This document shows, piece by piece, positions 10,345 to 11,325 of a DNA stretch of 25,825 nt (its first letter is position 1; every line of letters starts with the position of its first letter). Source of the stretch: a virus (Duplodnaviria; Heunggongvirae; Uroviricota; Caudoviricetes). The stretch covers positions 1-25,825 of IMG/VR virus record IMGVR_UViG_2537561935_000023; one strand, written 5' to 3'. Below the pieces are notes generated by a model, which saw only the letters and a program-made list of their open reading frames with translations, was not told where the DNA came from and did no database searches. A program made the translations under genes and the position numbers.

Positions 10345-11325
10345 ATGAAATTTAAGGACAAGAACCTTAAGGCTCTCGCGGAATGTATCATAGGAGATAA
10401 TAAGGCATTTCTGTATCGTTCAAGCAGTCACATCACTGAATTTTTCCAGGACTGCGGCATGGATGTTACTCATGACGGATCCACTCGGTGGAAATGGACG
10501 GCCCAGAGGCTTGAAGAACTTCTTTATGAGCCACAGTCAAAGCCACATACTTTGCCGGAAAGGTTTGTTCATGTGCTCAGAACTTTAATGTTAAAAGAAG
10601 ATGCAATGGATGACGATCCAGGAAGATTAAAGGCGCTTGAAGAACTGAACAAGCCTTTGATGCGGGAAGGCTATGAGGCATTCTATGGTGACGATCGCCT
10701 TTTGTATATACGCCATACCGATACCAAAACGGTTTCAGTCAGTAATAACCCTCATCGGCCCTTAACGCCTCACGAAGTAGAATGCAGAAGGTTACTGACC
10801 GCGTTTCTTGATACCTGCTCAGAAGATGAGTTAATAGAAGATATTCTCCTTCCTTTATTCCGGCAACTTGGTTTTCACCGGATAACAGCAGTGGGACATA
10901 AAGATAAAGCGCTGGAATACGGGAAAGACATCTGGATGAAGTTCACACTGCCAACTCAGCATGTTCTTTATTTCGGCATTCAGGCAAAAAAAGGTAAGTT
11001 GGATGCGTCCGGTGCCAGCAAATCTACGAATTCAAACGTGGCAGAAATCTTCAACCAGGTACTGATGATGCTTGGCCATGAAATATTTGACCCAGAAACA
11101 AATAGAAAGGTGCTGGTAGATCATGCCTTTATCGTTGCTGGCGGAGAAATTACTAAACAGGCGAGGAACTGGCTGGGCGGGAAACTTGATGCCAGCAAAA
11201 GAAGCCAGATAATATTTATGGACCGGGAAGACATTCTTAATTTATATACTGTAAGTAATGTACCTCTGCCAACAGGTGCTCTCATCTCTGATGATGCCGT
11301 TAAGAACGATGATATTCCTTTCTAA
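10345..11325 (+). CDS. Hypothetical protein (326 aa) with C-terminal Mrr-like PD-(D/E)xK restriction-endonuclease-type motif; candidate single-gene nuclease
   Basis: GAGGGGGAG upstream of ATG; C-terminal ...GHKDKALEYGKDIWMKF-(18 aa)-YFGIQAKKGK fits D ... QxK of Mrr-cat type nucleases; N-terminal domain unrecognised. Confidence 0.6.
   Translation: MKFKDKNLKALAECIIGDNKAFLYRSSSHITEFFQDCGMDVTHDGSTRWKWTAQRLEELLYEPQSKPHTLPERFVHVLRTLMLKEDAMDDDPGRLKALEELNKPLMREGYEAFYGDDRLLYIRHTDTKTVSVSNNPHRPLTPHEVECRRLLTAFLDTCSEDELIEDILLPLFRQLGFHRITAVGHKDKALEYGKDIWMKFTLPTQHVLYFGIQAKKGKLDASGASKSTNSNVAEIFNQVLMMLGHEIFDPETNRKVLVDHAFIVAGGEITKQARNWLGGKLDASKRSQIIFMDREDILNLYTVSNVPLPTGALISDDAVKNDDIPF

Follow-up and report, generated by a model that had tools for sequence, protein, structure and literature searches.

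A widely conserved Mrr/FokI-type nuclease family with a putative SSB-tip mimic in a Qin-like prophage of Escherichia coli

Endonucleases with a catalytic domain of the Mrr/FokI type are represented by the type IV enzymes MspJI, AspBHI and Mrr (Mrr_cat, PF04471), whose cleavage domain is combined with an SRA-like or winged-helix reader, and by FokI, which recognizes DNA through a large domain and has a cognate methylase; FokI, MspJI and AspBHI act as dimers or tetramers. Mrr-like or other PD-(D/E)xK effectors are also found in Avs4, Hachiman (HamA), Shedu (SduA), Cap4 and NucC, where they are placed under STAND ATPases, helicases or cyclic-nucleotide sensors. SSB, the protein that binds single-stranded DNA, in turn recruits its many partner proteins through its C-terminal tip peptide. 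Here we analyze a 326-residue protein encoded on the + strand at positions 10345-11325 of the IMG/VR record IMGVR_UViG_2537561935_000023, whose entire 25,825 nucleotides are referred to as the window and correspond to a defective Qin-like lambdoid prophage of Escherichia coli, inserted between rspB and ydfJ. An earlier interpretation based on the window alone, hereafter the sequence-only reading, had described this protein as an Mrr-like nuclease core coupled to an N-terminal domain that could not be placed; it overlooked a C-terminal mimic of the SSB tip and an extreme conservation across phyla, which are the main subjects of this study.

The kind of nuclease domain found here is already known, and single-protein nuclease defence candidates are common. 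What appears to be novel is the combination of an N-terminal domain without a known match, an SSB-tip mimic, and a near-housekeeping level of conservation in a mobile gene. The conservation is far above that of restriction enzymes such as MspJI, AspBHI and Mrr, which also differ in lacking the tip; sequence identity to the FokI cleavage domain is only 8%; and, unlike the effectors of Avs4, HamA, SduA, Cap4 and NucC, this nuclease has neither a partner gene nor a known sensor domain. Our preferred interpretation, to which we assign a probability of about one half, is that the family represents a self-contained mobile DNA endonuclease, most likely directed against phages or other invaders, whose SSB-type tip would couple it to the proteins that read the SSB tail. 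Our literature search found no paper on this nuclease family, nor on mimicry of the SSB tip by an immune or mobile-element nuclease.

Domain architecture and nuclease core

As read from the window, the open reading frame (ORF) is a complete coding sequence from ATG to stop, with 326 codons plus the stop codon. It is a real gene and not a chance ORF, since approximately 3,877 homologue clusters were retrieved, all of them starting with MKFK at the same position, and the ratio of nonsynonymous to synonymous substitution rates (dN/dS) was 0.01-0.21 in 12 pairs, with dS often saturated. In RefSeq the protein is always labeled ‘hypothetical protein’. The two peptides on which the nuclease assignment had been based, GKDIWMKF (residues 193-200) and YFGIQAKKGK (residues 209-218), are present exactly as quoted.

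An AlphaFold2 model of the protein, generated from a 38-sequence alignment with a mean predicted local distance difference test (pLDDT) score of 81.6, comprises an N-terminal domain, a linker containing the motif NPHRP, a C-terminal alpha/beta domain and a disordered tail. The N-terminal domain (residues 1-128; 10345..10728, + strand) consists of five helices and a beta-hairpin, with conserved patches at G17, F22-Y24-R25-S26-S27, H43-D44-G45-x-T47-R48 and W51. Its fold matched no known family, so that its description as unplaceable still holds, and a search for other architectures carrying it returned fragments only. The inter-domain linker (residues 129-141; 10729..10767, + strand) includes the conserved NPHRP motif at residues 135-139. 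The domain that follows (residues 142-306; 10768..11262, + strand) is assigned to the Mrr/FokI-type PD-(D/E)xK nucleases; it displays the alpha-beta-beta-beta-alpha-beta core fold of the superfamily, in which strand 2 opens with an Asp and strand 3 contains a (D/E/Q)xK motif, as is characteristic of the Mrr/FokI-like branch, and its closest structural relatives are FokI, MspJI and AspBHI.

The residues expected in a catalytic site of this type are strictly conserved. D195 (codon 10927..10929, + strand) supplies the Asp in the D...QxK motif and marks the beginning of strand 196-201, and Q213-A214-K215 (codons 10981..10989, + strand) forms the (E/Q)xK part within strand 207-215. Across 38 sequences, with identities as low as 38%, none of the residues D195, Q213 and K215 varies. 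D161 (codon 10825..10827, + strand), in the helix CSEDELIE, is a further invariant acidic residue and a candidate first metal ligand. On the basis of the motif and the modeled fold, we infer that the D195/Q213-x-K215 domain carries out metal-dependent DNA cleavage. By analogy with FokI, MspJI and AspBHI, dimerization or a higher assembly would probably be needed to cut duplex DNA.

The assignment to an Mrr-like nuclease core is therefore retained at the level of fold and motif, and not as formal membership of the Pfam Mrr_cat family: PF04471 gave no match to the protein at E ≤ 1, and the distant relatives P0140, P0152 and P0257 reached 14-18.4 bits against a gathering cutoff of 21. The PHROG models gave no match to the protein, PADLOC-DB v2.0.0 returned 0 families at E ≤ 1, and PDB sequence searches, using either the protein or a 38-sequence profile as query, yielded nothing meaningful. 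As a separate observation, in P0268, a relative of 342 aa without an SSB tip, a Schlafen AlbA_2 domain (Pfam E = 3e-14) is joined N-terminally to a homologous nuclease domain, which indicates that the nuclease module pairs with alternative N-terminal domains.

This architecture raises the question of whether the protein is a stand-alone type IV or DNA-feature-specific restriction enzyme of the Mrr/MspJI kind, in which the N-terminal domain would read the DNA, the C-terminal domain would cut it, and the tail would be secondary. Such an enzyme works without a methylase and the two-domain organization fits it; we nevertheless consider this explanation improbable, as the N-terminal domain corresponds to no known DNA reader and both the tip and the conservation would be left unexplained. 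The dependence on modified DNA that had been suggested finds no support either, because the N-terminal domain is neither an SRA-type nor a winged-helix reader. A restriction-modification system was also considered and rejected, as no methyltransferase recurs among the neighboring genes.

The C-terminal tip and its proposed partners

The nuclease domain is followed, after a conserved LPLP, by a variable linker predicted to be disordered (residues 310-320; 11272..11304, + strand), and the protein ends with the tip NDDIPF (11305..11322, + strand), the family consensus being FDDDIPF. Mean identity falls to 41% over residues 306-319, the variable stretch between LPLP and the tip spans roughly 11-15 residues across the family, and pLDDT is below 50 for residues 315-326. 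The tip thus consists of a stretch of acidic residues and a final [ILVMP]-P-F, and is carried on an intrinsically disordered linker, two features of the SSB C-terminal peptide (SSB-Ct). For comparison, we used reference sequences drawn from PMC3575820, PMC5872125 and PMC3616714; the E. coli SSB-Ct is given as WMDFDDDIPF (PMC3575820) and as ‘DDDIPF; SSB-Ct’ (PMC5872125). The last 6-7 residues of the family are identical, or nearly so, to the SSB-Ct and to acidic phage SSB tails, for example that of T7 gp2.5, and they likewise form the very end of the protein, behind a disordered linker. Unlike SSB, the carrier is a nuclease without an oligonucleotide/oligosaccharide-binding (OB) fold, as none is present in the model and no SSB Pfam match was obtained, and its linker of approximately 11-15 residues compares with approximately 56 in SSB.

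The tip is a recurrent property of the family. An IPF ending was found in 92 full-length members within the top 120 matches, with the exact sequence DDDIPF in 44 of these 92, and a PF ending in 69 of 73 full-length genomic copies; the tip is kept even in relatives with only 40-47% identity. All fetched loci together hold 2,897 ORFs of 100 aa or longer, and only one of those outside the family shares this ending. The terminal residues also differ between host clades: all 11 actinobacterial chromosomal copies, which form one clade, end in P/A/T-P-F, often as DEPPF, compared with 0 of 61 others, and DEPPF is also present on Mycobacterium and Rhodococcus plasmid copies. Published actinobacterial SSB tips that match this ending are GADDEPPF (M. 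smegmatis SSB-Ct) and DEPPF (S. coelicolor SsbA). These data are consistent with a tip variant, IPF or PPF, that follows the SSB tip of the host clade, the comparison being with published tips.

According to the proposed mechanism, the N-terminal helical domain would serve as a regulatory, sensing or target-recognition module, the Mrr/FokI-type PD-(D/E)xK domain would cut DNA, and the tip would dock into the pockets by which the host SSB tail is recognized. Candidate bearers of such pockets are the host proteins ExoI, RecQ, PriA, chi and RecO, and, on the phage side, hijackers of host SSB such as annealing proteins of the Red-beta/RecT type. Docking would couple the location or the activation of the nuclease to the replication and recombination machinery. 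The apparently host-matched tip points to partner proteins whose evolution has been tied to that of the host SSB tail, rather than to a purely intramolecular role, and mimicry of the tail provides no route to SSB itself, so that only tail-reading pockets would be engaged. Binding of the tip to SSB-tail readers is a prediction. Two published cases are related to this proposal: Red-beta binds SSB-Ct with a dissociation constant (Kd) of 11 uM, and the DRT10 system is under the joint control of the host exonuclease SbcB and of a phage-encoded SSB-like protein that ends in FDDDIPF. Provided that its tip is functional, the nuclease would plug into the SSB interaction hub by mimicking the SSB docking peptide, and would offer a simple single-gene model, with six tip residues and two catalytic residues, for the ways in which the replication and recombination machinery may be read or exploited by defence systems.

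A more specific version of this model treats the protein as an integrated-decoy sensor, in which the tip baits phage or plasmid proteins that need the host SSB tail; multimeric annealing proteins or replication factors would bind several tails, cluster the FokI-like domains and trigger cleavage, leading to abortive infection or destruction of the phage DNA. The apparent correspondence between the tip and the host-type SSB tip would follow from a co-evolution of the readers with host SSB, and pure self-inhibition would not require it; the closest structural relatives act as multimers, as mentioned above, and the module is a single gene without a separate sensor. The binding of phage Red-beta to SSB-Ct is in agreement with this version, as is the statement in PMC13490951 that RecT-host specificity is governed by SSB-Ct. 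Host SSB-interacting proteins would, however, occupy the bait constantly, and the function of the N-terminal domain would be left unexplained; we regard the decoy version as unlikely. If true, it would be a bacterial case of effector sensing by decoy, with the SSB interaction hub as its basis, and mimicry of a near-universal peptide with a conserved interactome would explain the conservation across phyla.

The single non-family ORF with a similar ending deserves mention on its own. It is located at 2905-3444 on the - strand of a Blastocatellia metagenome-assembled genome (locus L019), encodes an unrelated protein of approximately 168 aa without a Pfam match, ends in ..PPDDEMPF, and lies 4.5 kb from a family member with a disrupted tip (..FDVSLPRV). 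SSB-tip mimicry may thus occur in other protein families.

Conservation, genomic contexts and the case for defence

Homologues 60-75% identical to the E. coli protein were found across approximately ten phyla, and nearly all of them are 324-341 aa long. The taxa include Gamma-, Alpha- and Betaproteobacteria, Desulfobacterota, Acidobacteriota, Planctomycetota, Verrucomicrobiota, Cyanobacteria, Bacteroidota, Actinomycetota and Bipolaricaulota. Pairwise identity averages 78% over the nuclease domain and 57% over the N-terminal domain, and such identity is extraordinary for a PD-(D/E)xK nuclease. The guanine-plus-cytosine (GC) content of the homologous genes ranges from 30 to 63%, and that of their third codon positions (GC3) from 17 to 85%; gene GC is correlated with the GC of the flanks (r = 0.86) and is approximately 6 points lower. 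The identity of 60-75% over about ten phyla, the wide range of GC3 and the low dN/dS values indicate that the conservation is old and actively maintained by purifying selection. Recent horizontal gene transfer as the source of the high identity was considered and rejected, as GC3 varies in step with the hosts and dS frequently reaches saturation. A near-housekeeping conservation despite a mobile lifestyle constitutes an evolutionary puzzle.

Within E. coli the gene is sparsely distributed, being carried by 191 of 5,426 complete genomes at any identity and by 188 at an identity of at least 99%. A tblastn search against 50,697 phage genomes found no homologue, and a phage origin of the gene was rejected on account of these zero matches. 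We also looked for a conserved partner gene, small ORF, antitoxin or flanking DNA or RNA element, and none was found beyond close lineages; on this comparative evidence, the family is taken to be a true single-gene module.

The contexts in other genomes are diverse and frequently mobile. On IncF plasmids the gene follows vapBC and lies beside PDC-S06 or an OLD/HEC-04-like ATPase; in Ruficoccus it is located between Rhs, MobC and AAA_13 genes; and on a Mycobacterium plasmid it lies amid helicase, AAA ATPase, HNH and nucleotidyltransferase genes. The Vibrio copies mark the edge of a HipA-bearing island with at least three insertion sites. In six Vibrio loci (L086-L091) the gene, at 8001-8981, encodes an identical protein at the left edge of the island, which continues with ORFs of 301 and 429 aa, NA37, a helix-turn-helix (HTH) gene, HipA, and then NADAR/PRTase-CE or AAA_21. 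The left chromosomal flank of the island varies between LysR, an oligopeptide ABC transporter and MarR, which implies that the island is mobile and has several insertion sites.

The argument for a defence or abortive-infection role is circumstantial; it relies on the neighboring PD-T7-1 system, the position in a prophage hotspot slot, the presence of Septu at the identical junction in a related prophage (these three are described below), the mobile and defence contexts elsewhere, and a gene GC below that of the flanks. An explanation outside immunity would be that the protein is an accessory genome-maintenance nuclease within the SSB interactome, or a selfish addiction gene that stabilizes its carrier element. 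Housekeeping-grade conservation under strongly purifying selection would be expected of such a gene, many of the neighbors are housekeeping genes, the plasmid copies adjoin vapBC, and copies without the tip are syntenic with aconitase in four Acinetobacter species. Against it stand the patchy carriage in E. coli (191/5,426), the swap-in cassette position shared with Septu, the gene GC below flank GC, the 0 matches in 50,697 phage genomes and the failure to find an antitoxin-like partner, and we judge this explanation to be improbable.

The Acinetobacter copies also merit a description of their own. In four loci (L048, L049, L050 and L053) the gene at 8001-8939 encodes a tip-less 312-aa variant ending in ..VPEII, which adjoins aconitase and DUF4126 at the same chromosomal position in four species. 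This variant has the appearance of a domesticated lineage in which the SSB tip was lost.

Several observations weigh against the preferred interpretation of a mobile anti-invader endonuclease coupled to SSB-tail readers. With regard to defence, the nearest neighbors are heterogeneous over 74 genomes and many are housekeeping genes, the association with defence genes is a qualitative one, and the 326-aa protein has no match in Pfam, NCBIfam or PADLOC. With regard to the tip, the switch from IPF to PPF comes down in essence to a single evolutionary change, since all actinobacterial copies belong to the same clade, and the Fisher p-value for the actinobacterial and other copies is thus not phylogenetically corrected; the Acinetobacter copies, at a conserved chromosomal position, show that at least one lineage can do without the tip; abundant host SSB tails would compete for the same pockets; and the AlphaFold2 model shows no docking of the tail onto the protein, its inter-domain geometry being uncertain (predicted template modeling score, pTM, 0.54). 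If the interpretation is true, it would add to defence annotation an uncatalogued family of approximately 3,900 clusters in about ten phyla, which is found on plasmids and prophages of clinical Klebsiella and E. coli.

The prophage slot and its cassette platform

In the window, the nuclease gene occupies a variable slot of lambdoid prophages that extends from the DUF977 gene to hokD/rem. The cargo of this slot in other E. coli strains includes AbiH, a KwaB-like protein with QueH, a RelA/SpoT-domain protein, SMEK with a methyltransferase, DUF4209, DUF5677, DUF7167 and relBE. Here the slot contains three units, namely a 314-aa ORF, PD-T7-1, and a recombinase together with the nuclease gene, which are parted by 24-nt palindromic sites of the GTCCGC-N12-GCGGAC type at 6163-6186, 7334-7360, 7379-7402, 9317-9343 and 11547-11573, the last of them downstream of the nuclease cassette. 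PD-T7-1, a named anti-phage system, is encoded by a 449-aa ORF (7716..9065, - strand; PADLOC E = 7e-157, with a match to PHROG 8571) and forms its own palindrome-bounded cassette beside the nuclease gene.

The 202-aa tyrosine recombinase (9377..9985, + strand) is part of the local cassette platform, and its association with the nuclease is not conserved. By tblastn it was found at the E. coli locus only and was absent from all 80 loci of other genomes; the recombinase was thus rejected as a partner of the nuclease family, and the conserved co-occurrence that a two-gene module would display was not observed. The recombinase module (9321-10029) has 89-94% nucleotide identity to two other E. coli loci, and in both the homology ends at the same point, approximately 40 nt past the recombinase stop codon. 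At this fixed junction (~10004-10029) the cargo alternates: here it is the nuclease gene, and elsewhere it is Septu or an ETEC_3214-family gene, the Septu cargo of a related prophage being identified by PtuA (1.9e-165) and PtuB (1.1e-83). The mobile cassette that carries the nuclease gene extends over 10012..11492 (+ strand), as delimited by 86-89% nucleotide identity to copies in Pantoea septica (L002) and Leclercia (L003). Neither of these copies has a recombinase nearby, and the Pantoea cassette starts at one of the 24-nt palindromes.

The region at 6150-11590 can be described as an integron-like platform in which palindromes bound single-gene or single-system cassettes, and similar arrangements were seen in L002, L003, L032, L084 and L085. 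As in integron cassettes with anti-phage systems, there are discrete cassettes, short palindromic sites, a fixed point beside a tyrosine recombinase, and alternating defence cargo. Unlike integrons, the recombinase is of approximately 200 aa (FimB-sized) and is not IntI, the sites are 24-nt GTCCGC-N12-GCGGAC palindromes and not attC, and recombination at them is putative. Our literature search found no description of such a recombinase-plus-palindrome platform, and it may constitute a separate mechanism that shuffles defence genes in enterobacterial prophages.

Other features of the window are of minor relevance. The first cassette, the 314-aa ORF (6224-7168, - strand), shows a faint N-terminal GIY-YIG similarity (Pfam E = 0.017; TIGR01453 E = 0.027) and is possibly a further nuclease-type defence gene. 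Upstream of the nuclease gene, a Shine-Dalgarno-like run, GAGGGGGAG (10326..10334, + strand), was read directly from the sequence 10 nt 5' of the ATG, and a weak sigma-70-like promoter match, TTGCCG-17-TATGAT (10146..10174, + strand), was identified by consensus alone. The type I toxin-antitoxin hokD/sok (11885-12209, + strand; Rfam sok 111.7 bits; Hok ORF 11997-12209) lies directly downstream of the cassette array and forms the conserved right border of the hotspot. An Rfam scan of the window returned sok and tRNAs only; the latter correspond to three tRNA genes (Ile, Thr and Gly according to RefSeq for the same prophage) at 15421-15727 (+ strand), downstream of the Q antiterminator gene.
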